A stretch of 53,925 nt of DNA from a virus (IMGVR_UViG_3300017971_007904), one strand, 5' to 3'. Positions 18,392-39,166 are shown, counted from the first letter of the stretch. Made by a program: numbers and translations. Notes: generated by a model not told the origin, from the letters alone.

Positions 18392-18430
18392 GCCACCCCC
18401 AGCGGCGAAAGCCGCTGGGGGTGGTGTTTT
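18392..18430 (+). terminator. Terminator-like hairpin in leader of downstream operon
   Basis: gccacccccagcggc-gaaa-gccgctgggggtggt-gtttt. Confidence 0.75.
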
Positions 18431-24934: not shown

Positions 24935-25342
24935 ATGTTCAAGAAATGGTTGGAACTAAACGAGGTCGCCGCTAGAGGTTGGTCGATTGAAACCCTAGAT
25001 CAGAACTCTCCTTACTTTACATCGACACCTTGGAGACCACCATGGGCCAGGAATAAACCTCGCCCGCCCGGTATCGTCCAAGGAATCAGGTTTGACCAAC
25101 TACCACCAAGGCTCCAACAGGCCGTTCAGTATGGTTCATATGGAGACCAAGCGCAACAATTCACCTCCTTTGGCTTGCAATATGAGCGAAACCCGCAAGA
25201 CTACCAAGATTATCTGACAGACGTGCATGCTCTCGACGCCAATGGAAGGCCAGTTCACAGCATTGTGGGCCAAGCCGAAATCGGCCAGTTACACGACGAG
25301 CTACGCAGCCACTTCCTCAAGGGTTTTGAAGTCGCTCAGTGA
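24935..25342 (+). CDS. Hypothetical protein with capsid-targeting-like N-terminus
   Basis: MFKKWLELNE; TAGATA at 24915-20; AAGGAGG SD. Confidence 0.75.
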   Translation: MFKKWLELNEVAARGWSIETLDQNSPYFTSTPWRPPWARNKPRPPGIVQGIRFDQLPPRLQQAVQYGSYGDQAQQFTSFGLQYERNPQDYQDYLTDVHALDANGRPVHSIVGQAEIGQLHDELRSHFLKGFEVAQ

Positions 25343-26964
25343 CCCTGTATGTGCCGCAACCGACCCTTCCATGCTGTCACATCGGCTTGAAACTCCTTAG
25401 CAAATCGCACCATATAGCCATCCTCCTTCCATCCAGATAGATGGGTGAAGATTACCGGCCACTTCCCATCAATGAATATCTCTCCATTACGGTCCTCCCG
25501 TTCGTTCCTATGCCTATTCCAACATGCCACATTGCAGCCCTTGTGCTCGACGACCTTGCACGCATCCGGAAAGGCGAGTGGCACGTAGTCAAGATACTTC
25601 TGATCTACGAAAAGGTGGGTCTTCCTATCCTTCTCACAACGCCAGCCACATGCATCTATCCAGTAGTCAAGCGGCGCATGGCCTTTCTCGCTAACACCTA
25701 TAAAGCCAGCATTGAAGTAACCATCTTCCAGTTGGTTGCGAAACCCGACTATCTCCTCGATGCCTTCGAGTGGGTGAAGGGCTCGCCAGTGAGGTGTAAG
25801 CAGCATGCCGTTCTCAGATAGATCGTCGAATAGGAAGTCAAACGGTTTGACGAAATAGATGTCATTGTCAACATAGATGATCCTTTTGTAGCCAACCTTC
25901 AAGAACTCTTTGAGACAATATGGTTTTAGCCGCCAACGCAAGCAGTCTATGTCGTCACTCTTCAGGACCAAATCCTGTACGAGCGAAGGCTTTTCAAAGA
26001 TGTCCTGAACTGATGCCACACGGATATTGTTCATGCCTCGAATCTTCTTCCGAACATGCTCAGGCGGCAATGTATCGTCACAACAAAGAATCCAGTAGTC
26101 ACACCCATCACCAAACCGTTGCATTGATCGAATTGTAGCAAGACTCTCTGCTATGTGGTAGTTGGACATGATCGTGAAAGCGCACTTGTCAAACGAATCA
26201 ACGTCTGGTAGCTCTACAGGAGGAACACTCAAAGCTTCCAGCACTTTATCACCCACATAGTGTACCAACTGTCGCATACGTTTAGGTGATTTCAGATAAC
26301 GCCTTTTGTCTGATTGGGCGAGAGTGGTGATCACGTTTCCATAATTGGTAATTCTTCTGCGTGCCGGAATCGTATTCATTTTTATGAGAGGCGGCTTCAA
26401 AACAAGCTGTTTGACCCCTAGGAAATTTTGAACTCGTGCCAGAGTCTCAGTGAACCGATGATTTAACTCCTCGTAAGTAATATGCAACATCGGCAAGTGG
26501 TGGAACCAAACCACCATCTCTTTCTCTCTTTGTTCCCACTCATCAATCGTGTGTAACATGTTGGGCACATAGATACTGAATCGTACTTGATCTAACTCCC
26601 GTTTCTTTTCTTGATCGCCGTTCCATATTTCCCAAGTCTGGCTTTCCGTCGCCAATTTCTGTGATATGTACTGCTCGAACTTGTTGAGCCTTGCAAGTGA
26701 AATCACTTTGATGTCTTGCTGCCTGAGGTATGACCATGTTGGGTTGTTGTACGATATCTGACCGGTACGCATTATCTTGAACCCATTATGCTGTTTCCAC
26801 ACACCCTCCAAGTACTCCGAATAGTCCGCATGTACATCTTTGGGTGGCGGGCGGTTCTCCCATTGCAATGGCTCTGGTGCGAGGCTAATATCCGGGTGCA
26901 TATCGAGGGTTCGCTTCAAAAGCGTGCTCCCCGTCCGCCAATCAGCCAATAACAAGAATCTCAT
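25336..26964 (-). CDS. Sulfotransferase (Stf0-like)-glycosyltransferase fusion
   Basis: N-terminal RTGSTLL...ITYEEL; C-terminal KPY...IIYVDNDIYF...FNAGF...DQKYLD; start MRFLLL at 26964, 5 nt after TAGATA. Confidence 0.85.
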   Translation of the reverse strand: MRFLLLADWRTGSTLLKRTLDMHPDISLAPEPLQWENRPPPKDVHADYSEYLEGVWKQHNGFKIMRTGQISYNNPTWSYLRQQDIKVISLARLNKFEQYISQKLATESQTWEIWNGDQEKKRELDQVRFSIYVPNMLHTIDEWEQREKEMVVWFHHLPMLHITYEELNHRFTETLARVQNFLGVKQLVLKPPLIKMNTIPARRRITNYGNVITTLAQSDKRRYLKSPKRMRQLVHYVGDKVLEALSVPPVELPDVDSFDKCAFTIMSNYHIAESLATIRSMQRFGDGCDYWILCCDDTLPPEHVRKKIRGMNNIRVASVQDIFEKPSLVQDLVLKSDDIDCLRWRLKPYCLKEFLKVGYKRIIYVDNDIYFVKPFDFLFDDLSENGMLLTPHWRALHPLEGIEEIVGFRNQLEDGYFNAGFIGVSEKGHAPLDYWIDACGWRCEKDRKTHLFVDQKYLDYVPLAFPDACKVVEHKGCNVACWNRHRNEREDRNGEIFIDGKWPVIFTHLSGWKEDGYMVRFAKEFQADVTAWKGRLRHIQGH

Positions 26965-27091
26965 GCCATTATCTAGTAAATCGATCTTGACATGAGAGGC
27001 GAAATGAAGGAAACTGACAGTTGTCTTAAAATCGCAGGGAGAACGCCGGTTGCCCCACCAACGGGGGATCGGGAATAATTTTTGGAAATCG

Positions 27092-27124
27092 ACCGAACAT
27101 TTGAGGACCCAGGAGCGTCTATTC
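27092..27124 (+). promoter_or_regulatory. Bipartite ECF-sigma-like promoter candidate upstream of the tRNA-array leader
   Basis: ACCGAACATTT-N12-GCGTCTATTC, shared with the TROVE upstream region. Confidence 0.5.
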
Positions 27125-27169
27125 ATATACTGGCAGACAGTGGAAGATCATTGAGTCAGCAACTTTTGC

Positions 27170-27197
27170 TAAAGAAACCACTGTGAGATGCCGATAT
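27170..27197 (+). promoter_or_regulatory. Sigma-28-like promoter candidate upstream of the leader peptide
   Basis: TAAAGAAA-N12-GCCGATAT. Confidence 0.55.
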
Positions 27198-27229
27198 AAG
27201 GATAAGACTCCTTAACTAAGGCAAGAGCG

Positions 27230-27337
27230 ATGAGACGCCGAATACACAAACACGAACCCATTACCAAGCCAGCACAGGGTTGCCATGAGCAACCGGTCGT
27301 GGCCCGTACATGGGATAATGAGGCCACGTCGCCCTGA
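27230..27337 (+). CDS. Putative attenuator leader peptide MRRRIHKHEPITKPAQGCHEQPVVARTWDNEATSP (35 aa)
   Basis: TAAGG SD 8 nt upstream; stop codon lies inside attenuator segment 1; 31 distinct codons in 35. Confidence 0.7.
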   Translation: MRRRIHKHEPITKPAQGCHEQPVVARTWDNEATSP

Positions 27338-27416
27338 CGCCATTTATATAGGCTCAGGGCAAGTACCTGAGCCAGAGGACAAACCCCGGTTCAGGTAACT
27401 GAACCGGGGTTTTTTC
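27331..27416 (+). promoter_or_regulatory. Transcription attenuator with mutually exclusive hairpins
   Basis: 1:2 gccctga/tcagggc; 2:3 ggctcagg/cctgagcc; 3:4 cctgagcc/ggttcagg (antiterminator); terminator aaaccccggttcag-gtaa-ctgaaccggggtttttt. Confidence 0.75.
27381..27416 (+). terminator. Rho-independent terminator of the attenuator
   Basis: 14-bp stem, GUAA loop, U-tract. Confidence 0.9.
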
Positions 27417-27445
27417 GTTGGTATGAAGGAGAAAGAAACACAACA

Positions 27446-27460
27446 GATCATTGACAATTT
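27446..27460 (+). promoter_or_regulatory. boxA-like antitermination element
   Basis: gatcattgacaattt versus E. coli rrn boxA tgctctttaacaattt; no -10 box at promoter spacing. Confidence 0.5.
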
Positions 27461-27469
27461 GATACGTAT

Positions 27470-27541
27470 GGTGGCTATGGTGTAGAGGTAGCACGCTTGA
27501 CTGTGGATCAGGCAGCACGGGTTCGACTCCCGTTAGTCACC
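27470..27541 (+). tRNA. tRNA-His(GUG)
   Basis: Cloverleaf; encoded G-1; C73. Confidence 0.93.
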
Positions 27542-27545
27542 CCTA

Positions 27546-27738
27546 GCCGGTTTTCTCGCCTCGGCGGGATCAGGGGCCAATCGAGCATTCCACCGGCGAA
27601 ATACACTAGCTCCTAGGAGATACACGTAATCCTTGGTCACGATCTCGTGTGTCCCGAGTGATCGCAGCTTTGGATTTTTGAGGGCCGGGCCCGAGAAAGT
27701 CTAGCCACCTCTTTGCTGCGGAGCAGAAAAGAGGTGGC
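27546..27738 (+). ncRNA. Unassigned structured RNA between tRNA-His and tRNA-Ile
   Basis: Consecutive hairpins: gccgg/ccggc, gatacacg/cgtgtgtc, ggatttt/aaagtct, gccacctcttt/aaagaggtggc. Confidence 0.4.
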
Positions 27739-27744
27739 GGGTGG

Positions 27745-27817
27745 CCTACGGTAACTCAGTTGGAAGAGTGGCAGTCTGATATACTGCTGGTCGCTGGTTC
27801 AAGTCCAGCCCGTAGGA
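27745..27817 (+). tRNA. tRNA-Ile(GAU)
   Basis: Cloverleaf, cctacgg/ccgtagg acceptor. Confidence 0.9.
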
Positions 27818-27830
27818 CTTGGAGGAAAGA

Positions 27831-28049
27831 ATGAGTATCAGACAGAACGCATTAGTGAGGTTTGACTTTTCGGATTTGCCTGTGAAGTATCACAAGGAGT
27901 ATCCGTTTGCCGAGCATGATCGGTTTGTCTACCTCGGCGACATCGTTCAAATGCCTGGACATTGTGTAGTGGTCAGGCTGAGAGATGATAAGGTTTTCAC
28001 CTGTTACCACACAGACAATTTTGTGGAACTAACTGAAGAGGAGATTTAG
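27831..28049 (+). CDS. Hypothetical protein
   Basis: GGAGG SD. Confidence 0.65.
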   Translation: MSIRQNALVRFDFSDLPVKYHKEYPFAEHDRFVYLGDIVQMPGHCVVVRLRDDKVFTCYHTDNFVELTEEEI

Positions 28050-28055
28050 AGATAA

Positions 28056-28126
28056 GCGGGTATAGCTCAATGGTAGAGTCACTGGCTTCCAACCAGTACA
28101 CCGGAGTTCGATTCTCCGTACCCGCT
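28056..28126 (+). tRNA. tRNA-Gly(UCC)
   Basis: Cloverleaf. Confidence 0.93.
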
Positions 28127-28129
28127 CTT

Positions 28130-28236
28130 GAAGACGAATGCCCAGAGGAATTACATTGATTACCAAGATCGCCGGGCCAATCATCCCGGCAGCCGGGTCA
28201 AACCGGCATGAAGTTTCTCGCACATTTGTCGTCTTC
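28130..28236 (+). ncRNA. Aberrant tRNA-like multi-hairpin RNA
   Basis: Closing stem gaagacga/tcgtcttc; shared AATGC..GGAATTACATT hairpin; ccggg/cccgg and ccgg/ccgg hairpins. Confidence 0.45.
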
Positions 28237-28241
28237 AAAAC

Positions 28242-28327
28242 CGGAGTGTAGCTCAGTCTGGTTAGAGCGCCAGTTTTGGGAACTGGAGGCCGAATGGTAC
28301 ACGCAGGTTCAAATCCTGCCACTCCGA
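28242..28327 (+). tRNA. tRNA-Pro(UGG) with 16-nt variable region
   Basis: Cloverleaf; variable region aggccgaatggtacac. Confidence 0.85.
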
Positions 28328-28370
28328 CTTTTTTGGGGTCAGAAATTTGATTCCCAAACTCTCGTATGGT

Positions 28371-28796
28371 ATGAGAGAATTACAAAGAACATGCCGCTAT
28401 TGCGGTCAAACAAAACCGATTGACGACTTTGAAGTCGCTAGAGTAGTAAAGGAAAAACAATACCGTCGTTGGAGATGTTCCAGGTGCTACCTGGATTGCA
28501 AGAATGAAAGACGACGTAAGATAAACGAATGGTTCTGCGAATACAAGAAGACCCTTCGTTGCCAGAATAGGAAGTGCGGAAATCGAGATCATAGAGTCTT
28601 AGAGTTTCACCACGCCGACCAGAACAAAGAGGCGAATATAGCTGACGTTGTTTGGGGTCGTTGGGGAAAGGATCGGATACTTAGAGAAATTGGTAAGTGT
28701 AAAGTCTTATGTGCAAACTGCCATAGGATCGAACATTATGAAGAACGACACCGAAGCCAGGAGGATACGGTCACTGTCTGCAAAACAGTTGTTTGA
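28371..28796 (+). CDS. HNH endonuclease
   Basis: CRYC/CSRC zinc finger; LEFHH...CKVLCANCHRIEH. Confidence 0.85.
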   Translation: MRELQRTCRYCGQTKPIDDFEVARVVKEKQYRRWRCSRCYLDCKNERRRKINEWFCEYKKTLRCQNRKCGNRDHRVLEFHHADQNKEANIADVVWGRWGKDRILREIGKCKVLCANCHRIEHYEERHRSQEDTVTVCKTVV

Positions 28797-28819
28797 GGGT
28801 TCGACTCCCTCCGGTGTCT
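28747..28819 (+). tRNA. tRNA-Cys(GCA)
   Basis: Cloverleaf, U73; overlaps last 50 nt of HNH ORF. Confidence 0.88.
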
Positions 28820-28882
28820 CTCGAAAGGAAAATATCATGAGGTACGATAGCATCAAGTTGAAACGCAGCGCCCAAATTTGAT

Positions 28883-28955
28883 GGGGTTGTGATGTACATT
28901 GGTCGCATAGCTGGCTTTTACCCAGCCTGACAGAGTTCGATTCTCTGCGGCCCTA
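28883..28955 (+). tRNA. tRNA-Lys(UUU), divergent copy
   Basis: Cloverleaf with G-U-rich acceptor; loop CU-UUU-AC. Confidence 0.7.
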
Positions 28956-28961
28956 CTTGAC

Positions 28962-29033
28962 GCCTTCGTAGCTCAGAGGTAGAGCAGCGGCCTTTTAAGC
29001 CGCAGGTCGTGGTCTCGAACACCACCGGAGGCA
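28962..29033 (+). tRNA. tRNA-Lys(UUU)
   Basis: Cloverleaf; T-loop CUCGAAC. Confidence 0.88.
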
Positions 29034-29059
29034 CTTTAGAGAGGAGAAACAAAACATAA

Positions 29060-29133
29060 GCCTTCGTAGCTCAGCTAGGCAGAGCATCTGGCTCTTAACC
29101 AGAAGTGCGTTGGTTCGATTCCAACCGGAGGCA
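29060..29133 (+). tRNA. tRNA-Lys(CUU)
   Basis: Cloverleaf. Confidence 0.93.
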
Positions 29134-29155
29134 CTAAATAACAGTAGGAGGTTAC

Positions 29156-29341
29156 ATGTCAGAAAATCCAACCTGCTGTTTTAATCCGTGTGAAAACCCC
29201 GGAGCTTTGGAATACCAGAAATGTTTCAAGGAAGAGAATAACAACGGCTGCGGTTGCAGTTGTGATGATGGATCAGGATGCGAACCAGAGGAGAACATAA
29301 GAGTCGTTAGAAACAGGTGGACAAGAGAGGACTTCGTCTAA
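29156..29341 (+). CDS. Small Cys-rich hypothetical protein
   Basis: AGGAGGT SD. Confidence 0.6.
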   Translation: MSENPTCCFNPCENPGALEYQKCFKEENNNGCGCSCDDGSGCEPEENIRVVRNRWTREDFV

Positions 29342-29565
29342 TGACATTACAACGATGTCAGAGACCTCCAACAGGCGGTTGTCCTCGTGGTTGTTGCCAC
29401 TGGAATCCAAACGATCCGAATGCTCCTGAGTATAACAAGGCGTACAAGATAGAGAATAACAGTCAGCTTGCATATGGAACGAACATTGATGTCGCACGAT
29501 GTGCATTGCCGACAAGAGAACCGAGGGTAGTACGGAGTAACAAAACAAGACAAGACTATATTTGA
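29341..29565 (+). CDS. Small Cys-rich hypothetical protein
   Basis: TAATG overlap with previous gene. Confidence 0.5.
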   Translation: MTLQRCQRPPTGGCPRGCCHWNPNDPNAPEYNKAYKIENNSQLAYGTNIDVARCALPTREPRVVRSNKTRQDYI

Positions 29566-29639
29566 CGTGGGGTGGAGCAGTCTGGTAGCTCGCAGGGCTC
29601 ATAACCCTGAGGTCGGAGGTTCAAATCCTCTCCCCACCA
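29566..29639 (+). tRNA. Initiator tRNA-fMet(CAU)
   Basis: 1:72 mismatch; three G-C pairs in anticodon stem. Confidence 0.92.
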
Positions 29640-29640
29640 C

Positions 29641-29713
29641 GCTAGTGTAGCTCAACAGGTAGAGCGCCACACTTGTAATGTGGATGTTGGGGGTTCGATT
29701 CCTCTCACTAGCT
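29641..29713 (+). tRNA. tRNA-Thr(UGU)
   Basis: Cloverleaf. Confidence 0.93.
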
Positions 29714-29797
29714 CTTGATCTTCGGATCAACGCAGGGATCGCTCAGCGATGCTGCGCCCGTGCAAAGACCTTGGGTGGGAAGGCCGGGAAGAAGAAT

Positions 29798-29812
29798 GTT
29801 ATTTGACAATTT
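29798..29812 (+). promoter_or_regulatory. Second boxA-like element
   Basis: gttatttgacaattt, preceded by hairpins at 29715-29760. Confidence 0.5.
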
Positions 29813-29823
29813 GGTAAGCCCTT

Positions 29824-29895
29824 GCGGACGTAGCTCAATGGCAGAGCGCAACGTTGCCAACGTTGAGGTTGTGGGTTCAACTCCCATCGTCCGCT
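29824..29895 (+). tRNA. tRNA-Gly(GCC)
   Basis: Cloverleaf. Confidence 0.95.
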
Positions 29896-29899
29896 CTCT

Positions 29900-29970
29900 G
29901 CGCCCATGGTGTAGCGGTAACACATGACCTTCCCAAGGTTAGGTCACGAGTTCGAGCCTCGTTGGGCGCT
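29900..29970 (+). tRNA. tRNA-Gly(CCC)
   Basis: Cloverleaf. Confidence 0.9.
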
Positions 29971-29975
29971 CTTAT

Positions 29976-30048
29976 GGCCCTATGGACTAACGGTCAGGTC
30001 GTCAGCCTTTCAAGCTGGAGGAGGCGGGTTCGATTCCCCCTAGGGTCA
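29976..30048 (+). tRNA. tRNA-Glu(UUC)
   Basis: Cloverleaf. Confidence 0.9.
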
Positions 30049-30060
30049 CTATATTAAGGC

Positions 30061-30690
30061 ATGAAAGTTCTCTTCTGTGTCTACACTTGTAAGGAAGATG
30101 CAGGGCACCTCCAAGCCTTCAAACGGTCGCCATTGTACAAATGGGTTTCCGATAATGAGGCTTTCGAGGTCATTGAAGTTTATGCCGATGGTTCACTCAA
30201 GGAGCCGACTTTCGAGAATGGCATCCTGACTTTGGCGTGCGACGAAGCGTATCCGAAGTTGAGTGTCAAGACATATGAAATGGTCAGATACTGTCTGAAG
30301 CATTTTGACTTCGACTTTTTGGTCAAGTGCGATTGTACGGTCTTGAATGTTTTTGGCGTCAACAAGCTGTTGAAATTTGTTCGGTCCAAGAAGTCGTACT
30401 TGTACCACTACAATGGTGTCGCCTCATCCAAGCTGACAGAAAGGGTAATGCGAAACTGGAGGAAGAAAAAGGGGTTGGAGGAACAGATTCCTCGAAGCTT
30501 CAAAGTGATGTACCCCGGTCATTCTTCTTTTTCGTTTTACGCTGGTAAGCTTTACATAGTCAGCAGACCGTTTTGCCGTTATATCGCACGTTACGGAAAG
30601 AGGTTGGCGAATAAGTACGTGAAGTACCATCATGGTACTGAAGATCAAATGGTTGGACTGCTTTATCAGCGGTTCACTTTGGCTGGGTAG
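30061..30690 (+). CDS. Glycosyltransferase (GT31/galactosyltransferase-like)
   Basis: FDFLVKCDC DxD-like motif; FYAGKLYIVS; EDQMVG. Confidence 0.7.
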   Translation: MKVLFCVYTCKEDAGHLQAFKRSPLYKWVSDNEAFEVIEVYADGSLKEPTFENGILTLACDEAYPKLSVKTYEMVRYCLKHFDFDFLVKCDCTVLNVFGVNKLLKFVRSKKSYLYHYNGVASSKLTERVMRNWRKKKGLEEQIPRSFKVMYPGHSSFSFYAGKLYIVSRPFCRYIARYGKRLANKYVKYHHGTEDQMVGLLYQRFTLAG

Positions 30691-30754
30691 CTCAGTCCAG
30701 TAGAGCGTTTGGTTGTTAACCAAATTGTCGTGGGAGCGAAGCCCACCCCAGCCT
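30681..30754 (+). tRNA. tRNA-Asn(GUU) with atypical T-loop AGCGAAG
   Basis: Full cloverleaf except for the T-loop. Confidence 0.75.
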
Positions 30755-30764
30755 CTTGAAACAA

Positions 30765-30829
30765 GACTGAGTAAATTGTTGGGACTGGGTTTGATCCCCA
30801 CCCCGTAGGTTCAATTCCTGCCTCAGTCA
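30765..30829 (+). pseudogene. Degenerate tRNA-like element without a D-stem (nominal anticodon UGA)
   Basis: Acceptor gactgag/ctcagtc and T-arm intact; 65 nt. Confidence 0.5.
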
Positions 30830-30835
30830 CTTTAT

Positions 30836-30909
30836 TCCGATGGGTCCATACTGGTAATGGAGCACGGCTGTTAACCGTGTTGTTGGAGGTTCGAGTCCTC
30901 CTGTCGGAG
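30836..30909 (+). tRNA. tRNA-Asn(GUU)
   Basis: Cloverleaf, U1-A72, G73. Confidence 0.92.
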
Positions 30910-30912
30910 CTT

Positions 30913-30986
30913 AGGGTGGATGCCCAGTGGAATTACATTTGACTGTTAATCAAAACCGATAGTTTCACGAATAGTTTGTCACCCTA
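30913..30986 (+). pseudogene. Aberrant tRNA-Asn(GUU)-like element
   Basis: Acceptor and anticodon arm present; D-arm replaced by shared ATGC..GGAATTACAT hairpin; T-arm degenerate. Confidence 0.5.
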
Positions 30987-30991
30987 AAAAC

Positions 30992-31064
30992 GGCCCTGTC
31001 GTCTAATGGCTTAGGACGCCAGCCTCTCACGCTGGAAATCGGAGTTCAATTCTCCGTGGGGTCA
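30992..31064 (+). tRNA. tRNA-Glu(CUC)
   Basis: Cloverleaf. Confidence 0.9.
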
Positions 31065-31065
31065 C

Positions 31066-31881
31066 TTGGCAGTATGATGTCGTCAGGACAGTGCATGGCA
31101 ACATGCATAAAGGAAGGTGTGGCAGCCTTTCGCCCGCTTGCGGGTCCATTCATACAAGCTGACCTTCCTCGGCTTCCTGAAACGGGAGCTAACTGGAACG
31201 TCGCCGGAACAGTCTTCTACTGGCCAACGGTGGGTAGAAGATTTCCAGGGGTAGCGCCCTGGATTACCACGCTAAGACATACCAGCGAGAAGGAACAGTA
31301 GTTGTTCGGTGTAAGGAGTTGCGCCCGAGTGCTGAACTTCAATTTGATAGGAATCGGTAATCCCTTCGCAGGGATTGACGATTGCTTGAAAAATGGGATT
31401 ACAAGGTAGCCAAACCTTGGTCCAGAACGGTGTGTGGCATTTCGCTCCTCAAAAGGGATCGAAACCACAGAGCCAGCACATCGTCGCCAAATGTTGTTAG
31501 CTCAATGGTAGAGCTATCGTCTCTCAAACGATAGGTTATCGGTTCAATCCCGGTACAACACCCAAGCAACAGTCTGGTTCTGCGTTTGATGAAAGCGGCT
31601 TAAATCGGTGACCTTCGGGTAACACCGGCATCCAAAGCTCGCAAGGCCGAGGATGTTAATCACCAAGAGCGACTAGGGGTTTAGCGACCTCGCACTGCTC
31701 GCAAGGCAGGGTTAATCGAAGTGATTGAGTAGTCAAACGGTAAGAAGGAAATGCCACCTTCTAAAACAAGGCAGTCGTGAGTGGATACGCTCGTGGAGCG
31801 TGGATAGGCTCTTAACGGCCCATGCAAAAAGGCCGGTACGGGAGTCAAAGATCACTCAGAGTATGGTGTAATCTCAGCCCA
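31066..31881 (+). ncRNA. GOLLD-like giant ncRNA (~815 nt)
   Basis: Dense hairpins (tgcatg/catgca, tcttctac/gtagaaga, aatccct/agggatt, ggtgtgtggc/gccagcacatc); CTCAAAAGG, GAGTAG, GTGGATA and terminal TGTAATCTCAGCC blocks match my recollection of GOLLD; size and tRNA-array context fit. Confidence 0.7.
31491..31564 (+). tRNA. tRNA (anticodon CUC) embedded in the GOLLD-like RNA
   Basis: tgttgt/acaaca acceptor; gctc/gagc D-stem; atcgt-CU-CUC-AA-acgat; T-arm atcgg-ttcaatc-ccggt. Confidence 0.75.
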
Positions 31882-31899
31882 CTCTTATCTAAATATGAC

Positions 31900-32526
31900 A
31901 TGGCACTTCTACTTCCACATAGCTTAATGATACACGTCCCCAAAACTGGTGGAAGTTGGTGCCGAATGGCGTTGCGAGTCGCCAAGATCAAGCACAGGGA
32001 ATTGCATACCCACAAAGGCGCAGGTTGTCGCCATGAAGGTATCAAGTCTGTTTTGAAGAATGCTCGCAATCGTTTTACCTTTGGCTTCGTAAGGAATCCG
32101 CTGACATGGCTGCAAAGTCGGTGGGCCTACACAATGCGAAGTACAGACGGTAATGGTGGCGGGACTCCTCGTTGGTCAACAGACTTCAACGAATGGGTGG
32201 AGGGCATCACGACCCACCACCCCAACTATGTTTTCCAGGCGATCTTGCATCGTCTTGGGTACGAGAAAATCGATGGCCAGTGGCAGCCCGGTCATCACGC
32301 TGTAGATTTCGTAGGGCGAACAGAGCACCTTGTAAATGATTTCGTCAAAGCGCTGAAGAAGGCGAATGAGAAGTTTGACGAAAGGGCAATAAGACATGTT
32401 GCACCACAAAAGGTTTGCTCTCGTGGCGATTACTGGCAGAAGAAAGTCCAGTATCGCCCGCACCTACGTGACCTCGTCATCGAGGTCAACCGCCCGATCT
32501 TCGATTTGTTCGGGTATGAGTCTTAA
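31900..32526 (+). CDS. Sulfotransferase family protein
   Basis: MIHVPKTGGSW; VRNPLTWLQSRW; GRTEHL; start 4 nt after TAAATA. Confidence 0.85.
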   Translation: MALLLPHSLMIHVPKTGGSWCRMALRVAKIKHRELHTHKGAGCRHEGIKSVLKNARNRFTFGFVRNPLTWLQSRWAYTMRSTDGNGGGTPRWSTDFNEWVEGITTHHPNYVFQAILHRLGYEKIDGQWQPGHHAVDFVGRTEHLVNDFVKALKKANEKFDERAIRHVAPQKVCSRGDYWQKKVQYRPHLRDLVIEVNRPIFDLFGYES

Positions 32527-32566
32527 AATACGGCTCGAACCACTCCTTTATAGAAAAGGAGATAGT

Positions 32567-32902
32567 ATGCCGTACAAAGACCCAGCTAAGCAAAAGGCTG
32601 CACAAGCTTCGCACTATCAACAAAACAAAGATCGCTTCAAGCAACGTGCAAGGGATCGTATAGAACGAAATCGTCGATTTGTGCGTGAATACAAGGAAGG
32701 GTGTAGTTGTGAAGTGTGTGGTGAAGACCGGTGGCAAGTGTTAGACTTTCATCACAAAGATGAGGGTACCAAGTACAAAGGGGTGGCAAATCTCGTTTGT
32801 AATCGTTCATCTATCAAAAAGATCAAAGCGGAGATTGCCAAATGTATGGTGGTCTGTGCTAATTGCCATCGTATGATCCATGAGGGAAATACGTGGTCAT
32901 AA
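32567..32902 (+). CDS. HNH endonuclease
   Basis: CEVCG...LDFHH...CMVVCANCHRMIH; AAGGAG SD. Confidence 0.85.
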   Translation: MPYKDPAKQKAAQASHYQQNKDRFKQRARDRIERNRRFVREYKEGCSCEVCGEDRWQVLDFHHKDEGTKYKGVANLVCNRSSIKKIKAEIAKCMVVCANCHRMIHEGNTWS

Positions 32903-32904
32903 CC

Positions 32905-32979
32905 GCTCCAGTGGTGTAATTGGTTAACACACCTGCCTGTCACGCAGGAGACGTGCCGGTTCAAGTCCGGTCTGGGGCG
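32905..32979 (+). tRNA. tRNA-Asp(GUC)
   Basis: Cloverleaf. Confidence 0.88.
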
Positions 32980-33024
32980 CTAGGAGGGGCTGCGGCCTCC
33001 CATGACAAAAACACGCAGAGCGAT

Positions 33025-33095
33025 GGCCTCTTCGTCTAATGGTAAGACACCAGACTGTCGATCTGGCAACAGGAGTTCGATTCTCCTAGGGGTCG
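33025..33095 (+). tRNA. tRNA-Asp(GUC), second copy
   Basis: Cloverleaf. Confidence 0.9.
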
Positions 33096-33099
33096 TTTC

Positions 33100-33197
33100 G
33101 TCGGTGACCTTCATAATAAAGAAGGCATTGGAGAGTCTGTAACGGGTTCGATACCCGGCCAAGGAGGCAGCAATCTCCTTGAGCAAGCCGAACCGAC
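33100..33197 (+). ncRNA. Permuted tRNA-like RNA (Y RNA/YrlA candidate)
   Basis: gtcggt/accgac closing stem; T-arm cggg-ttcgata-cccg followed by a loop-closed 7-bp stem caaggag/ctccttg. Confidence 0.35.
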
Positions 33198-33200
33198 TTT

Positions 33201-33272
33201 TGGCTGATAGTGTAATTGGAAGCACGACTGACTTTGAATCAGTTAGTGGAGGTTCAAGTCCTCCTTGGCCAG
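33201..33272 (+). tRNA. tRNA-Gln(UUG)
   Basis: Cloverleaf, U1-A72. Confidence 0.93.
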
Positions 33273-33295
33273 CTTGCTGTTCGTTCAATAACCAA

Positions 33296-33365
33296 AGGGG
33301 TGGTACCCTAGGTAGGACGCCGCTGTGATGGCGGAAATATGGGTGTCACCAAATCCCGTACAGCA
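33296..33365 (+). pseudogene. Degenerate tRNA-like element
   Basis: Residual anticodon-like (cgccg/tggcg) and T-like (atggg/cccgt) arms. Confidence 0.25.
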
Positions 33366-33370
33366 AATAC

Positions 33371-33448
33371 AGGGGGGATGTTGCTGGGACAACAGGCGGT
33401 CTCCAAAGCCGCTGCTTTCGCTGTGGGGTTCGATTCCTCTCCTCCCTG
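33371..33448 (+). tRNA. tRNA-Trp(CCA) with 11-nt variable region
   Basis: Cloverleaf; variable region tgctttcgctg. Confidence 0.82.
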
Positions 33449-33477
33449 CTTTTTCTTCGATGTGCGGTAAATAGAGC

Positions 33478-34053
33478 ATGGGACTCCTGCCTGAAACCGC
33501 CGCTTTTGAGAAACATATTTTCAAGCGTCTGGGTATTCGTTTGATGGGTCTTCGGATGTGCGAACTGGGCAATCAGATGCTTATGGGATCGATGGGGCGA
33601 GGCGCAGCCAAGTTTCGGTATTGCTCCCATGGTGCGATCCACGTCTCTATCGATTGGAATGGCAAATCAGGAGCCATTCCCTTTGATCTCCAGAAACCTC
33701 TTCCTCGTATTTTCCATAGATGGTTTCAAGTTGTGACGGACTATGGAACTTTGGAACATGTGCAGACCCAGTATCCGGCTTGGAAGAACGTCCACCAACT
33801 ATGTGCTTATGGTGGAATCATGATTCATGTTCTACCCTTAATAGGTCGCTGGCATGGTCATGGTCTGCATCACTTTTCACAGGAGATAATGGACAAAATA
33901 GGGAAGGCGTGCTCATACCAGATTATTGAGAATACGATAATCCCTTCCTCGAAGGTCAAGCCTCAAGTGGCAACTGTCTATCGAAAAACTCGAAAGAGCA
34001 CTTTTCCGTCGAAGGAAATCTTTGACAAGATAGAGATTCCCCCGGCGACGTAA
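33478..34053 (+). CDS. Class I SAM-dependent methyltransferase
   Basis: MCELGNQ; SIDWNG; VVTDYGTLEHV; GGIMIHVLP. Confidence 0.75.
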   Translation: MGLLPETAAFEKHIFKRLGIRLMGLRMCELGNQMLMGSMGRGAAKFRYCSHGAIHVSIDWNGKSGAIPFDLQKPLPRIFHRWFQVVTDYGTLEHVQTQYPAWKNVHQLCAYGGIMIHVLPLIGRWHGHGLHHFSQEIMDKIGKACSYQIIENTIIPSSKVKPQVATVYRKTRKSTFPSKEIFDKIEIPPAT

Positions 34054-34125
34054 CTCCTCATAGTTCAACGGATAGAATACGACCCTCCGAAGGTCATGAT
34101 GTTGGTTCGATTCCAACTGAGGAGA
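34054..34125 (+). tRNA. tRNA-Arg(CCG)
   Basis: Cloverleaf. Confidence 0.9.
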
Positions 34126-34137
34126 CTAGATACCCAC

Positions 34138-34644
34138 ATGAGATTCAGATTGTGGGTAGAAACGATTGTTCACGAAGACGAACATGTAAGGATTCGGGAC
34201 GCTGAAGCTTCCGATATTCCCGAACTCTTCACGCACAAGACTGAAGACGTTGAGGACATCCTCGCTATCCAACAGCAGGGATTCAACCTTAGGAAGTTCG
34301 GCCAGACATCGAGAAGGTTCCGCAGCCCCGCCTATCTTACAGAATACGACCCAAAGGGCGTTTATGCTACGGCTGGTGGTGGGGAAAGTTTAAGCCCGTA
34401 TGATAAACGACCTTATGTGGTCTTCAGAGCAGACATCAACAAAGCTCTGGTTCTGGAAGAGAAGACACATCAAGAGAATCCTAAGCAAGTTCTGTCTGAG
34501 TTGTACGGCGGCAAGACCGGCGCACAACTGAGAAACGCCTTGATGAAGGACGGTTACCAAGCTGTTCTTCGCCCCGGCAGTGAACAAATCATTCTTGACC
34601 CATCGATTATCACAATCGTATCAGTGGGTAACACATCCTCGTAG
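34138..34644 (+). CDS. Capsid-targeted protein, possible ADP-ribosyltransferase-like fold
   Basis: MRFRLWVE; GVYAT...GYQAV...EQIILDP pattern; start 5 nt after TAGATA. Confidence 0.6.
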   Translation: MRFRLWVETIVHEDEHVRIRDAEASDIPELFTHKTEDVEDILAIQQQGFNLRKFGQTSRRFRSPAYLTEYDPKGVYATAGGGESLSPYDKRPYVVFRADINKALVLEEKTHQENPKQVLSELYGGKTGAQLRNALMKDGYQAVLRPGSEQIILDPSIITIVSVGNTSS

Positions 34645-34707
34645 CTCAGCGGATAGAGCACTAGTTTGCGGAACTAGTTGTCGCTGGTTCGATTCCAGCC
34701 GGGGATG
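34635..34707 (+). tRNA. tRNA-Arg(GCG)
   Basis: Cloverleaf; rare anticodon. Confidence 0.9.
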
Positions 34708-34712
34708 CTTAC

Positions 34713-34785
34713 GCTCCCGTAGCTCAATGGACAGAGCAGCACGCTTCTAACGTGACGGTTGTGGGTTCAAATCCTACCGGGAGTG
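34713..34785 (+). tRNA. tRNA-Arg(UCU)
   Basis: Cloverleaf. Confidence 0.93.
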
Positions 34786-34787
34786 CT

Positions 34788-34916
34788 TGCGGGGTAGTGT
34801 AATGGCTAGCACGCTTTACGTGTTTCACGCCCTTATTGTCTCTTATCAGAGAATGCTCAGTGGAATTACATTGGTATTCGGAACCAGTAGAGCAGGTTCG
34901 ATTCCTGCCCCCGCAA
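34788..34916 (+). ncRNA. tRNA(UCG)-like gene with a 57-nt insertion between D-arm and anticodon arm
   Basis: tgcgggg/ccccgca acceptor; gtgt/gcac D-stem; insertion 34814-34870; ttggt-AU-UCG-GA-accag; T-arm intact. Confidence 0.6.
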
Positions 34917-34922
34917 CTTTTT

Positions 34923-34995
34923 GCCCCGTTAGCTCAATGGATAGAGCGCCAGTCTTCGGAACTGGATGTTGGGAGTTCAAGTCTCTCACGGGGTG
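34923..34995 (+). tRNA. tRNA-Arg(UCG)
   Basis: Cloverleaf. Confidence 0.93.
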
Positions 34996-34999
34996 CTTT

Positions 35000-35072
35000 G
35001 GGACATTGGTGTAACGGTGAAGCACACGACCCTTATAAGGCCGAAGACAAGGTTCGATTCCTTGATGTCCTA
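35000..35072 (+). tRNA. tRNA-Ile(UAU)
   Basis: Cloverleaf with one anticodon-stem mismatch; rare anticodon. Confidence 0.8.
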
Positions 35073-35669
35073 CTTGAGTTCGCACGAGAACCCGAACTGT
35101 TTGATGAGCTTAGCGTATCGCTTTGCGACAAAGTCCCGAGTTCTCCGGTTGTAGTACTGGGTGAAGTGCTTGTGGCGTGAAGTGTTGCATCTCGGCAACT
35201 CTGTTGTATCGATACCCAGCTTCTCGCAGACCGTATCAAAATCTTCTTGCAGTTGGTCAAATTGGATGAAGTAGTCCATTCGTTGTTGGCCATCTATCTC
35301 GAAGAAGCGTTGGTATTTGGCATCTGTGAACCAAAGGTTGGATAGGATGTATTCCGAGAAGGTATGAGTTCGGCAGAACTTGTTTAGGCACCACCAGTAT
35401 GGGTTTCGTCTCCACTGCCGGATACTACCTTTGTATTGCCTGTTGAAGAAGTAGGCAGACACTTCTACATCCCAAGGGTTTCTGATAACGGTGAACTTGA
35501 AGTAGTCGTCAATGATCTCTGGGCCATACTTCGCTAGATACTCATAAAGGCGACCATGGTGTCCGTGTCGCACGGTTGACGTGTTCTCATTACCGAGTGC
35601 GTGTTGAATCGAAGTACCACCAGTCTTTGGAATGTGAATGAATATGAATTTGTGATTGTGGCAGATCAT
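35070..35669 (-). CDS. Sulfotransferase family 2 protein
   Basis: FIFIHIPKTGGTSI; IRNPWDVEVSAY; FDQLQEDF. Confidence 0.9.
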   Translation of the reverse strand: MICHNHKFIFIHIPKTGGTSIQHALGNENTSTVRHGHHGRLYEYLAKYGPEIIDDYFKFTVIRNPWDVEVSAYFFNRQYKGSIRQWRRNPYWWCLNKFCRTHTFSEYILSNLWFTDAKYQRFFEIDGQQRMDYFIQFDQLQEDFDTVCEKLGIDTTELPRCNTSRHKHFTQYYNRRTRDFVAKRYAKLIKQFGFSCELK

Positions 35670-35673
35670 TTTC

Positions 35674-35701
35674 TAAAGTTTCGATAATTCAATGTCGATA
35701 C
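35674..35701 (+). promoter_or_regulatory. Sigma-28-like promoter candidate
   Basis: TAAAGTTT-N12-GTCGATAC, a few nt upstream of ATG 35708. Confidence 0.6.
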
Positions 35702-35707
35702 ATAAGT

Positions 35708-36250
35708 ATGGAAACTTATGTAGATAGTGTCGGTCATAAGCGAAAAGGCATCAAGGTGAGTTGTCACACTTGCCAAAAATCATTTCTAACTCGAAAAGAT
35801 CAAGCTGCTCGATATTGCTCTAGGAAATGTTTTCATAGTGCCCAACGACGTAGAGTGACACATAATTGTGCTTATTGTGGCAAATTATTTGAGCTACGGC
35901 AGTCACGTATCTCTAAGAGTGGTTTGCACTGCTGTTCTAAAAAGTGCAAGGATCGGGCTCAGCGTATAGGTGGTGTTACCAAAATGCTTCCAAGCCATTA
36001 CGGCACAGGGAGTAGTTCGGCTTCATATCGAGCCGAATACCATCGCTTGACGGGTCTGGAAAAATTGGCGTGTGGTCGCTGTGGTTACGATGAATTTGAA
36101 TGTGGTATTGATATACATCATTTAGACAGCGATAGGCAAAATAATAAGAAAGAAAATCTATTTGCCTTGTGTGCGCCATGCCACAGGGCCTTACATAATG
36201 GGTTGTGGCAGATAGAAAACGGGGGTGTAGCTCAACTGGGAGAGCGCTAG
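35708..36250 (+). CDS. HNH endonuclease with N-terminal zinc-finger repeats
   Basis: CHTC..YCSRKC; CAYC..CCSKKC; CGRCG...IHH...N...LCAPCHRALH. Confidence 0.85.
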   Translation: METYVDSVGHKRKGIKVSCHTCQKSFLTRKDQAARYCSRKCFHSAQRRRVTHNCAYCGKLFELRQSRISKSGLHCCSKKCKDRAQRIGGVTKMLPSHYGTGSSSASYRAEYHRLTGLEKLACGRCGYDEFECGIDIHHLDSDRQNNKKENLFALCAPCHRALHNGLWQIENGGVAQLGER

Positions 36251-36293
36251 TCTGGCAGACTAGAGGTTGCGGGATCGTACCCCGCCACCTCCA
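36221..36293 (+). tRNA. tRNA-Ala(GGC)
   Basis: G3-U70; T-loop AUCGUAC. Confidence 0.9.
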
Positions 36294-36369
36294 CCTTTCG
36301 ACCCTGTGTTGGAGGAGCCCACCACTTACGAGCCGGGTTCAAAGCTCGGTAGGGTCGGATACATATAGC

Positions 36370-36981
36370 ATGTTCGACAAAAAACGACGCCAAGAAGAAC
36401 TTCGGGACTGGCTCACAAACGATGAGGACTACCGTCGTTACGAGTACTCAGTATCTAGGAAGCCCATCTTCTTTGATTTGGGCGCATTCAAGGGACAGTG
36501 GTCTCGACGAATGGTTCGTAAGTACGGCGGCGTCTCGCACATGTTTGAGATTCAGCCACCGTTAATTGGTCGGCTTAAACGAAGATTTCGTCCTCCGCAC
36601 TTCTTTGTCCACCCTTTCGGTTTAGCAGACAAAAACCTGCGAACCGAGGCCATGCTGTCACACAGGCCGGATGCATGTAGCGTATTTGGGTGTGGCTGTG
36701 GGTCACGCATCAAGGTGAGACTTCTTCGTATGGCGGATTGGGTGAGGTCGGATATCGATGTTTGTAAGATCAACATCGAGGGGGCTGAGTACGATTTACT
36801 GGAACACATGCTTGAAGAAGATGTAGTTGGTCTTTGCGAAAACATTCAAGTCCAGTATCATTGGCAGTATGACGTTCCTGACTTTGATAATCGGCGACGG
36901 AAGATCAGAGAGGCTTTGAGCCAGACACATGAATTGACCTACGACTACTACTACGTCTGGGAGAACTGGAGGAAGAGATGA
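36370..36981 (+). CDS. FkbM family methyltransferase
   Basis: FFDLGAFKGQW; IDVCKINIEGAEYDLL; IQVQYH. Confidence 0.9.
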   Translation: MFDKKRRQEELRDWLTNDEDYRRYEYSVSRKPIFFDLGAFKGQWSRRMVRKYGGVSHMFEIQPPLIGRLKRRFRPPHFFVHPFGLADKNLRTEAMLSHRPDACSVFGCGCGSRIKVRLLRMADWVRSDIDVCKINIEGAEYDLLEHMLEEDVVGLCENIQVQYHWQYDVPDFDNRRRKIREALSQTHELTYDYYYVWENWRKR

Positions 36982-37238
36982 TTTGTGAGCTTTGCGAGCG
37001 ATACATCGCTTCTTCTTTCCATCATTTTATCCCAAAAACGGTCCATTCCAATAAATGGTTCAAGAAACGCTTCTCCCGTGCCGATATGAGTGAGGGGATC
37101 GATGTTTGTCGGGATTGCCATCATGCGATTCACGATACGATCCCAAAAGAAAAGGACCTCGCCAGGGACTTCAATACGATTGGGAAATTGAAGAATCACC
37201 CTCAATTACGGAAATACCTGAAGTGGAGGAAGAGATGA
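36978..37238 (+). CDS. Small HNH-family protein
   Basis: CELCER...HHFIPK...VCRDCHHAIH. Confidence 0.8.
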   Translation: MICELCERYIASSFHHFIPKTVHSNKWFKKRFSRADMSEGIDVCRDCHHAIHDTIPKEKDLARDFNTIGKLKNHPQLRKYLKWRKR

Positions 37239-37408
37239 AGATAACTTTTGAGGTAACGTCCGAAGAAGCGAAATGGCTGAAAAGCGATTTGGGACTTTTG
37301 AGTGAGATGGCGCATGACGGCGAATACGATGAAGATGGCAAGCGTGAATCGCTATACGCCAGACTTCACTTATTAGTCTGGAAGCAGATGAAGGAAGAAG
37401 ATGCCTAG
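37235..37408 (+). CDS. Hypothetical protein
   Basis: Coupled ORF, GGAGG SD. Confidence 0.55.
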   Translation: MKITFEVTSEEAKWLKSDLGLLSEMAHDGEYDEDGKRESLYARLHLLVWKQMKEEDA

Positions 37409-37625
37409 TCCCAGAAAGAACAAGAGAAGCATCTTGACCAGGGAACAGTTGGAGGCGCTTACAACGCCAAGACTGCTCGCTTATCGCAACTCATTACTTC
37501 GGAATTACGAAGATGAAGGGTGGGGTGATCCTCCTGAATGGCATAAGCAACATCCGGAGTGGAAGGCCCACTACGCAATGGTCAAAGAGATTTTGGCCGA
37601 AAGGCCCCATGTGGAGAAGAAGTGA
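37401..37625 (+). CDS. Hypothetical protein
   Basis: Coupled ORF. Confidence 0.6.
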   Translation: MPSPRKNKRSILTREQLEALTTPRLLAYRNSLLRNYEDEGWGDPPEWHKQHPEWKAHYAMVKEILAERPHVEKK

Positions 37626-37785
37626 CATGTTCTACCTGAAGCTTTTGCTCATCGTAGCGGTATTTGGCTTGTGCTTCTTTTATCGTAAGGAGCATGTGTA
37701 CAACAAACCAAGTTATCGAAAACGTAGAAAATAAGCGGCCCTATATAAGAAGATTCAATTCTCAAAAAATCGAAAGGAGAATGAC

Positions 37786-37989
37786 ATGCCTGGACGTGAC
37801 AAAACGGGTCCTGATGGAAAAGGACAAGGTACTGGGAGAGGGATGGGAGCTTGCGGCGGCGGAAAAGCTTATGGTCGAGGCCAAGGCAAGCGTTGCGGCC
37901 AAGGCCGTGGCCGTGGCCGTGGCCGTGGTTGCCAACAAGTTCCGGATCAAGATGATAAGAAGGACGACGCAAAAAACGACAAAACTTGA
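37786..37989 (+). CDS. DUF5320-like Gly/Arg-rich protein
   Basis: MPGRDKTGPDGKGQGTGRGMGAC...GRGRGRG. Confidence 0.75.
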   Translation: MPGRDKTGPDGKGQGTGRGMGACGGGKAYGRGQGKRCGQGRGRGRGRGCQQVPDQDDKKDDAKNDKT

Positions 37990-38019
37990 TCCAACCGTTA
38001 CAAAACACTGATCTGCTTG

Positions 38020-38085
38020 TTGGAGCGGGTCATGACGTGTGAGAGGAATGCTGGTTGGAATACATTTCTACCCCCGCTTGCCAGA
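38020..38085 (+). ncRNA. Small structured RNA carrying the shared AATGC..GGAATACATT hairpin
   Basis: agcggg/cccgct closing stem; aggaatg/catttct hairpin. Confidence 0.35.
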
Positions 38086-38093
38086 AATTTTAC

Positions 38094-38165
38094 GGGGGTA
38101 TGGTGTAATGGCGCACGCCCGGTTTCCAACACTGGGAGGAGCGGGTTCGATTCCCGTACTTAATG
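38094..38165 (+). pseudogene. Degenerate tRNA-Gly(UCC)
   Basis: D- and T-arms intact; 9-nt anticodon loop; acceptor only partly paired. Confidence 0.55.
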
Positions 38166-38200
38166 ATCTAGTCATACTTTTGTCCTCATATCACACGTAT

Positions 38201-38272
38201 TGCCTGATGGTGTAATTGGTAGCACGCATGGTTCTGGCCCATGAAGTTGGGGTTCAAATCCTCATCGGGCAG
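38201..38272 (+). tRNA. tRNA-Gln(CUG)
   Basis: Cloverleaf. Confidence 0.93.
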
Positions 38273-38285
38273 CTTGGAGGTAGTG

Positions 38286-38489
38286 ATGACATACGAAGAA
38301 GCTAAAAGGCGTTGCCACGTCCGGTCGGCCATCCGTAGGAAGGGCCAACCGGACATTCTGTACTGGAAGAACCATCCGGTTCCACTAGACGTGCGAGTAC
38401 CAGACATTCAGAAGATCGCTAACGATTGGGAAGAGTACGATCCTCGTGAAGAGCCAGGGTGCTCTGCGTATGAGGAGACACCAGCATGA
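38286..38489 (+). CDS. Hypothetical protein
   Basis: GGAGGT SD. Confidence 0.6.
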   Translation: MTYEEAKRRCHVRSAIRRKGQPDILYWKNHPVPLDVRVPDIQKIANDWEEYDPREEPGCSAYEETPA

Positions 38490-38761: not shown

Positions 38762-38794
38762 ACTGGCATGGCGGGGTATTGAGTCTCCGCACAC

Positions 38795-38868
38795 AGGCGA
38801 TTAGCTCAGTTGGCTAGAGCGCCACGTTTACACCGTGGATGTCAGGGGTTCGAGTCCCTTATCGCCTA
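38795..38868 (+). tRNA. tRNA-Val(UAC)
   Basis: Cloverleaf. Confidence 0.95.
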
Positions 38869-39162: not shown

Positions 39163-39166
39163 CTTC

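Follow-up and report, generated by a model that had tools for sequence, protein, structure and literature searches.

A short leader at the head of a large tRNA operon in an uncultured huge phage is probably a ribosome-dependent transcription attenuator, and we think it rather likely that this attenuator is tuned to the tRNA repertoire of the operon that it precedes. The leader contains a 35-codon upstream open reading frame (uORF) whose stop codon lies in the first of five RNA segments that can pair in mutually exclusive ways, the last pairing being an intrinsic terminator. The window, by which we mean the whole 53,925-nt stretch of IMGVR_UViG_3300017971_007904 that was analyzed, is part of a phage genome of roughly 297 kb and carries a Ro60-like protein, a GOLLD RNA, an RNase P-like RNA, and 40 tRNA genes. 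The preliminary description of this DNA had read the leader as an attenuator that samples codons and gates the tRNA array. Its architecture, its conservation in a related phage (here called L003), the folds adopted under a ribosome mask, and the sampling of amino acids all spoke in favor of this reading, which is supported in part; the coverage of specific anticodons proved weak.

The unit under proposed control is an operon of ∼18.6 kb on the plus strand (27471 to 46104) that begins with tRNA-His at 27471, 54 nt past the leader terminator, and ends at a terminator at 46070 to 46104. Its tRNA array (27471 to 44262) comprises 39 tRNA genes with 34 anticodons for 16 amino acids; no tRNA for Leu, Phe, Tyr, or Ser was found in the array with ARAGORN and the Rfam tRNA model within the window. 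Small ORFs are interspersed among the tRNA genes, and the operon behind the leader also holds the GOLLD RNA, an RF1-like gene, and the RNase P-like RNA. Just four strong plus-strand terminators occur in the window (13444 to 13478, 18392 to 18425, 27381 to 27416, and 46070 to 46104), and the terminator scan of the window detected none between 27416 and 46070. The array is preceded by one leader and one terminator, with no cassettes for individual tRNA blocks up to 46070. The three terminators elsewhere in the window are all unlike the leader terminator: two share a AACCACCACC...GGTGGTGGTT stem, and the third, at 18392 to 18425, has a related GCCACCCCC...GGGGGTGGT stem.

Several other elements in and near the operon were recorded. 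The GOLLD RNA lies within the operon at 31425 to 31880 (Rfam RF02032, 190 bits against a gathering score of 150) and has a tRNA-like element embedded in it at 31491 to 31563. The RNase P class A-like RNA is short (45877 to 46072; 48.5 bits, gathering score 100, E value of 2.8e-12) and sits at the far end of the operon, directly ahead of the terminator at 46070 to 46104. The tRNA at 27745 to 27818 was called Ile(GAT) by ARAGORN, and its best database matches are phage tRNA-Phe genes (81 to 85% identity); it may be a Phe-type body with an altered anticodon. A protein with Ro60/TROVE and vWA domains (Pfam) is encoded upstream of the array at 11672 to 13432, and weak matches to the Y RNA family YrlA were found inside the array at 28131 to 28238 and 34678 to 34738.

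The uORF extends from 27230 to 27337 on the plus strand and encodes MRRRIHKHEPITKPAQGCHEQPVVARTWDNEATSP, followed by TGA. A Shine-Dalgarno-like TAAGG (27217 to 27221) stands 8 nt before the ATG, and its AAGG is kept in L003. As the preliminary description had it, the frame and its ribosome binding site are present at these positions, the TGA (27335 to 27337) falls inside the GCCCTGA of segment 1 (27331 to 27337), and the terminator and the array start 54 nt beyond it lie where they had been placed. A hairpin within the uORF, GGTTGC/GCAACC (27278 to 27294), is conserved in L003, where both arms are kept around a longer, 11-nt loop, with a 6-nt in-frame indel; judged from the sequence, it may serve as an RNA polymerase pause or synchronizing hairpin.

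The codon content of the uORF was then recounted, and the earlier figures were reproduced: 31 of the 35 codons are distinct, and 29 of the first 30. Codons 1 to 30 (27230 to 27319), referred to here as the sensing part, encode every amino acid for which the array has a tRNA, 16 in all, each between one and four times, with no runs or strong enrichment of any regulatory codon. Arg (four times), Pro (three times), and the paired Thr, Lys, Glu, Gln, Ile, Val, and Ala residues change codon at every repeat within the sensing part, and the sole codon used again there is His CAC, which occurs twice (in addition to one CAT). The uORF has no Leu, Phe, or Tyr codon and a single Ser codon, at position 34, matching, as had been claimed, the four amino acids without tRNAs in the array. 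That Ser is among the last five codons, which otherwise reuse earlier ones. Between 28 and 29 of the 34 array anticodons are addressed by the uORF, against the 28 counted before.

We asked how unusual this content is. By codon diversity, the uORF ranks within the top 0.6% of all 35-codon windows free of stop codons in the window and within the top 1% of its 307 small ORFs. Among 39,237 stop-free 30-codon windows in six frames, one alone contains all 16 served amino acids and none of Leu, Phe, Tyr, and Ser, and it begins at the ATG at 27230. In L003 this property is confined to the homologous leader, and it was found in 0 of ∼38,000 windows from three unrelated huge-phage loci. The joint probability that a 30-codon peptide beginning with Met would have the 16 amino acids present and the 4 absent is ∼2e-5 under phage codon usage. 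Because the uORF is T-poor (14% T), and T poverty alone depletes Leu, Phe, Tyr, and Ser codons, nulls matched to its composition were also applied; these gave values of 3 to 6e-5. Base composition as the full explanation of the amino acid set was rejected, since the matched nulls still stood at about 5e-5.

Synonymous codon choice carries a second signal. Given the peptide, random choice among synonymous codons would be expected to yield 24.5 distinct codons in the sensing part, compared with the 29 of 30 observed (P = 0.002 to 0.003), an excess that arises because repeated amino acids take a different codon each time. Coverage of the specific array anticodons, in contrast, is weakly above that from random synonymous choice (P = 0.03 to 0.26). 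The codon sampling put forward in the preliminary description therefore stands at the level of amino acids (P of ∼2 to 6e-5) and of synonymous diversity (P of ∼0.002), while its matching to particular anticodons is weak, and the signal is best described as every served amino acid in many different codons, not as a perfect list of anticodons.

Downstream of the sensing part, the leader RNA contains a chain of alternative helices. Segment 1 (27331 to 27341, GCCCTGACGCC) includes the final Pro codon together with the TGA and is identical in L003. Segment 2 (27351 to 27360, GGCTCAGGGC) can pair with segment 1 or with segment 3 (27364 to 27373, TACCTGAGCC); segment 3 in turn can pair with segment 2, as an anti-antiterminator, or with segment 4, as an antiterminator. 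Segment 4 (27388 to 27397) consists of bases of the 5' arm and loop of the intrinsic terminator, which occupies 27381 to 27416 on the plus strand, with a 14-bp stem (27381 to 27412), a GTAA loop, and a T6 run at 27410 to 27415. The three helices proposed earlier (1:2, 2:3, and 3:4) exist as they had been written, and two of them are longer: helix 1:2 pairs GCCCUGA-C-GCC with GGC-UCAGGGC (10 bp with one bulge), and helix 3:4 extends to 10 bp between 27364 to 27373 and 27388 to 27397.

The energies of these helices are balanced in both genomes. In the window, they are −16.7 kcal/mol for 1:2, −15.2 for 2:3, −17.0 for 3:4, and −25.7 for the terminator helix 4:5; the corresponding values in L003 are −17.6, −14.0, −15.9, and −29.0 kcal/mol. 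Complementarity between segments 3 and 4 exceeds that in 99.4% of shuffled spacers in the window (P = 0.006) and 97.8% in L003 (P = 0.022), and segments 1 to 3 fold better than ∼99.3% of shuffles. The terminator stems of the two phages have diverged, yet each matches its own segment 3 over 8 to 10 bp. At one end of helix 3:4, an A-U pair in the window is replaced by C-G in L003, a covariation that is thin with two genomes.

To model the effect of a translating ribosome, the transcript was folded up to the terminator loop with a mask reaching 12 nt beyond the first base of the A-site codon. A mask at the stop codon allows the 2:3 hairpin to form and leaves segment 4 unpaired, so that the terminator can form, in the window and in L003 alike. 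With the A-site codon at any position from 2 to 30 in the window, or 2 to 31 in L003, helices 1:2 and 3:4 form and the 5' arm of the terminator is captured. Folding with and without segment 1 masked, a check suggested with the original claim, thus gave the expected switch between 1:2 plus 3:4 and 2:3 with a free terminator arm in both genomes. The boundary of the switch at codon 30 coincides with the end of the stretch in which nearly every codon differs; codons 31 to 35 lie in the zone where a stalled ribosome would mask segment 1, and the lone Ser codon falls there. In the unmasked pre-terminator transcript, which represents the absence of a ribosome, 1:2 and 3:4 form, that is, the antiterminator. 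The chain of five segments therefore makes read-through, not superattenuation, the default without translation. At equilibrium, the minimum free energy fold of the full-length leader is 1:2 plus 4:5, and the terminator forms in every state; the antiterminator must therefore win kinetically, as in trp.

These folds bear on another reading of the leader, in which the terminator is regulated but senses general translation capacity or the coupling of transcription to translation (ribosome availability, host shut-off) and not particular tRNAs, the varied codons merely avoiding dependence on one tRNA or being a by-product. Read-through as the fold default without a ribosome means that any delay of the lead ribosome would open the operon, as in drug-sensing leader attenuators, and the presence of single codons without runs, together with anticodon coverage that is not clearly above random, fits such a sensor. 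What it leaves unexplained is the exclusion of Leu, Phe, Tyr, and Ser along with the inclusion of all 16 served amino acids, as well as the diversification of synonymous codons, and we consider it unlikely. An attenuator tuned to the operon's own tRNAs accounts for these features and is the reading preferred here.

Conservation of the leader was examined in L003 (JGI 3300033144), the one related phage contig found by way of neighboring proteins. Its sulfotransferase is 43% identical to that of the window, a 76-amino-acid array protein is 82% identical, and its tRNA genes, which run Val, His, Ile, Gly, Pro, Cys, Lys, Lys, Lys, Met, Thr, and onward, are syntenic with those of the window. Directly upstream of that array lies a homologous leader, the kind of relative called for in the preliminary description: an AAGG stands 10 nt before the ATG of a 36-codon ORF encoding MRHRITKQEIAGPEQGCEKHAQPMVGTWDRNPAKSP, and the start position, stop position, and reading frame are kept. 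The start context CAAGAGCGATGAGAC and the end GTCGCCCTGACGCCATT are the same as in the window, as is segment 2. The terminator has a different sequence, AGCCCGCTCAGGG-AAA-CCTGAGCGGGCT followed by T7, and still pairs with segment 3, so that the four alternative helices are conserved although the terminator sequence has diverged.

The manner in which the two leaders differ points to a translated frame. The peptides are 58% identical, with conserved blocks QGC, TWD, and SP, and the ORFs differ in length by a net 3 nt, with indels of 6, 3, 3, and 3 nt at moderate-to-strict gap penalties; the flanks, unlike the ORF, contain many indels of 1 to 2 nt. Mismatches by codon position number 5, 8, and 13, the third position being the most variable. 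The L003 leader uses the same 17 amino acids as the uORF of the window, namely, the 16 served amino acids plus a penultimate Ser. This set was rejected as independent proof, since the residues conserved with the window already supply all 16. Three observations on L003 do count as independent. The ∼15 changed or inserted residues include no Leu, Phe, Tyr, or Ser (P = 0.02 to 0.08, as we estimate from amino acid frequencies); codon diversity in L003 is 27 of 31 (P = 0.04 to 0.06); and of the 24 anticodons found in the portion of the array present on the contig, its leader addresses 23. The two genomes that carry the leader unit share ancestry, and the evidence from conservation is limited to that pair.

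The comparison also bears on whether the leader could be an untranslated structured RNA, such as an sRNA or a riboswitch-like element sensing a ligand or protein, in which the open frame is incidental. The frame and the sequence that follows it contain several conserved hairpins, and fold z-scores of −7.5 and −5.8 were obtained, as such an RNA would lead one to expect. The frame, the Shine-Dalgarno start, and the stop are nonetheless conserved, with indels that keep the frame and variation at third positions; no Rfam family matched at an E value of ≤1; and the amino acid set has no explanation if the frame is not translated. We regard an untranslated RNA as highly improbable, and a translated leader ahead of an attenuator remains the preferred interpretation.

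The region upstream of the uORF was considered as a source of transcription. A noncoding stretch of 145 nt (27085 to 27229, plus strand) is ∼67% identical to L003 and contains perfectly conserved blocks, among them CAACTTTTGCTAAAGA at 27160 to 27175 and TTTTGCTAAAGA; it is a candidate promoter region and 5' untranslated region. A scan with the sigma-70 consensus, which may differ from the promoter type of this phage, yielded no convincing promoter near the leader. On its upstream side, the leader is flanked by a sulfotransferase/glycosyltransferase-like gene on the minus strand, annotated as a 596-amino-acid ORF (25336 to 27126). Because the first 54 codons of this ORF overlap the conserved noncoding block, the gene more probably starts at Met55 (26964). 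The segment at 26992 to 27078 is similar to the 3' terminus of a gene found intact in L003 (8029 to 8517, minus strand), and this gene appears to have been lost from the window.

Whether the array could instead be transcribed from a site beyond the leader terminator was also considered. The sigma-70 consensus found no such site in the 54-nt gap between the terminator and tRNA-His, with the same reservation about the phage's promoter type. A motif, TTGACAATTTG, occurs ∼20 nt upstream of tRNA-His and of tRNA-Gly(GCC) in both phages (27451 to 27466 and 29803 to 29818 in the window; 7561 and 5064 on the minus strand of L003) and may function as a signal for processing or as part of an internal promoter. 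Read as a −35 box, the copy before tRNA-His would place the start of transcription inside the tRNA, and it has no conserved partner hexamer. In L003, the distance from the T run of the terminator to the first tRNA (Val) is ∼15 nt, so that its tRNA-Val can be made solely by read-through. A promoter downstream of 27416 had been named at the outset as what would count against attenuation, and L003 leaves no room for one between its terminator and its first tRNA.

The same short distance weighs against the possibility that the leader is an ordinary small gene, encoding a conserved 35-amino-acid hydrophilic micropeptide with its own terminator, and that the array has a separate promoter or is expressed through constitutive leakage past that terminator. 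Peptide identity of 58% with three conserved blocks, a strong terminator, and a TTGACA-containing motif after the terminator in the window would all suit such a gene. A plain peptide gene would not be expected to diversify its synonymous codons, however; the peptide is without hydrophobic core residues (Leu, Phe, and Tyr are all absent), and the series of mutually exclusive helices that starts at the stop codon is both conserved and better than shuffled sequences. A micropeptide gene is thus quite doubtful as an explanation, and we return to the attenuator in what follows.

Further relatives of the leader were sought in INPHARED, IMG/VR, JGI metagenome contigs, and GTDB genomes, and no look-alike was found in these collections. 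blastn of positions 26900 to 27900 against INPHARED gave matches to tRNAs alone. IMG/VR searches with the 596-amino-acid neighboring protein or the exact terminator returned no useful relative of the leader, and two IMG/VR matches to the segment 1/2 pattern were both due to chance. Pattern scans of JGI metagenome contigs (36 loci, assessed by blastn) and GTDB genome contigs (50 loci) likewise produced chance matches throughout. Homologues of the 76-amino-acid array gene led to loci L042 to L054 and to the IMG/VR loci L055 to L070, and L003 was the sole syntenic relative; homologues of a 209-amino-acid array gene consisted of one identical protein and one on a 1.7-kb contig. Other tRNA arrays (L043/L044, L058, L060, L061, and L070) had no strong plus-strand terminator or similar leader in the stretches examined, the start of the L043 array being lost at the contig end. 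L043 (1 to 18391; JGI 3300060285) and L044 carry a 44-tRNA array, share the 76-amino-acid array gene with the window, and include a suppressor-like tRNA whose anticodon is TTA and another tRNA whose anticodon loop is aberrant. A search of the full-text literature turned up no description of tRNA genes or phage tRNA arrays being controlled by a leader peptide.

From the anatomy of the leader, a working model can be drawn in which we infer leader translation, the promoter, the kinetic competition, and the physiological trigger. Transcription would start in the conserved region upstream of the uORF, and a ribosome would translate the 35-codon leader while RNA polymerase makes segments 1 to 5. If translation is fast, the ribosome would reach the Pro-UGA-C at the end of the frame in time to cover segment 1; segments 2 and 3 would then pair, the terminator 4:5 would form, and the operon would be off. 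Pro-UGA-C is a slow termination context, and slow termination there would hold the ribosome on segment 1 as the polymerase crosses the terminator. If translation is slow, with a delay at any of codons 2 to 30, the stronger helix 1:2 would pair, and segment 3 would be left free to capture the emerging 5' arm of the terminator (3:4), so that the polymerase would read into the array. Because the sensing codons list the operon's 16 amino acids with nearly every codon different, the transit time of the ribosome would sum the decoding times of tRNAs that the operon can replenish, and control of the operon would amount to negative feedback on tRNA supply.

A broader proposal, which we put forward tentatively as possible rather than likely, is that the leader integrates the state of the tRNA pool, its transit time summing the decoding of nearly all tRNA species encoded in the operon, such that depletion or cleavage of any one of these species would induce the 39 tRNAs together with the GOLLD RNA, the release factor, and the RNase P-like RNA. 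If so, the operon would be an inducible counter-defense and translation-rescue operon, with host anticodon nucleases and phage-induced host shut-off as putative triggers. With one codon each, sensitivity to partial shortage of a single tRNA may be low. The model predicts that starvation or tRNA cleavage affecting any of the 16 amino acids opens the switch and that the same for Leu, Phe, or Tyr does not; a start-codon knockout is likewise predicted to open it.

Phage tRNA arrays are usually treated as constitutive cargo that serves codon usage or anti-defense, and to our knowledge essentially nothing is known of their regulation. A leader that lists the amino acids of its own operon would extend trp-style attenuation from amino acid supply to tRNA supply, and would show that an attenuator need not depend on a single reiterated codon but can read many simultaneously. 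The leader also ties tRNA arrays to the current issue of phage responses to defenses that target tRNA.

T-box riboswitches resemble the phage leader in sensing tRNA status and in choosing between terminator and antiterminator, but they do so by binding uncharged tRNA through a specifier loop and a T-box motif, with no leader peptide. A T-box identity for the leader was ruled out, as no T-box or other leader family of Rfam matched in a cmscan of 26000 to 29000 at an E value of ≤1, which returned tRNAs and weak unrelated matches alone.

The closest parallels are the classical leader-peptide attenuators of amino acid operons, such as trpL, hisL, leuL, and pheL, of which hisL has a longer chain of alternating helices, and the multivalent thrL and ilvL. 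Like these, the phage leader has a short 5' ORF led by a Shine-Dalgarno sequence, an intrinsic terminator ahead of the first gene under control, and mutually exclusive helices chosen by ribosome position, the last judged here from sequence and folding; stalling at leader codons is proposed to select the antiterminator, as in the classical systems. The phage leader differs in preceding a tRNA operon and not biosynthetic genes, in having five segments with the stop codon inside segment 1, and in its coding content: in place of runs of a single codon, each of 16 amino acids is represented by roughly one codon, and the choice among synonymous codons is varied. Compared with the runs in classical leaders, codons that occur singly give a lower gain.

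Ribosome-stalling attenuators of antibiotic resistance genes, such as vmlR (PMC9226507) and mef/mel(msrD) (PMC4335068), also combine a leader ORF with a terminator/antiterminator choice, and in them, as is proposed here, a slowed leader ribosome turns on genes that relieve the impairment of translation. In vmlR and mef/mel(msrD), a ribosome with bound drug stalls at a particular peptide context, and a resistance protein is produced, whereas in the phage leader slow decoding is presumed to be the signal and the tRNAs themselves would be the product.
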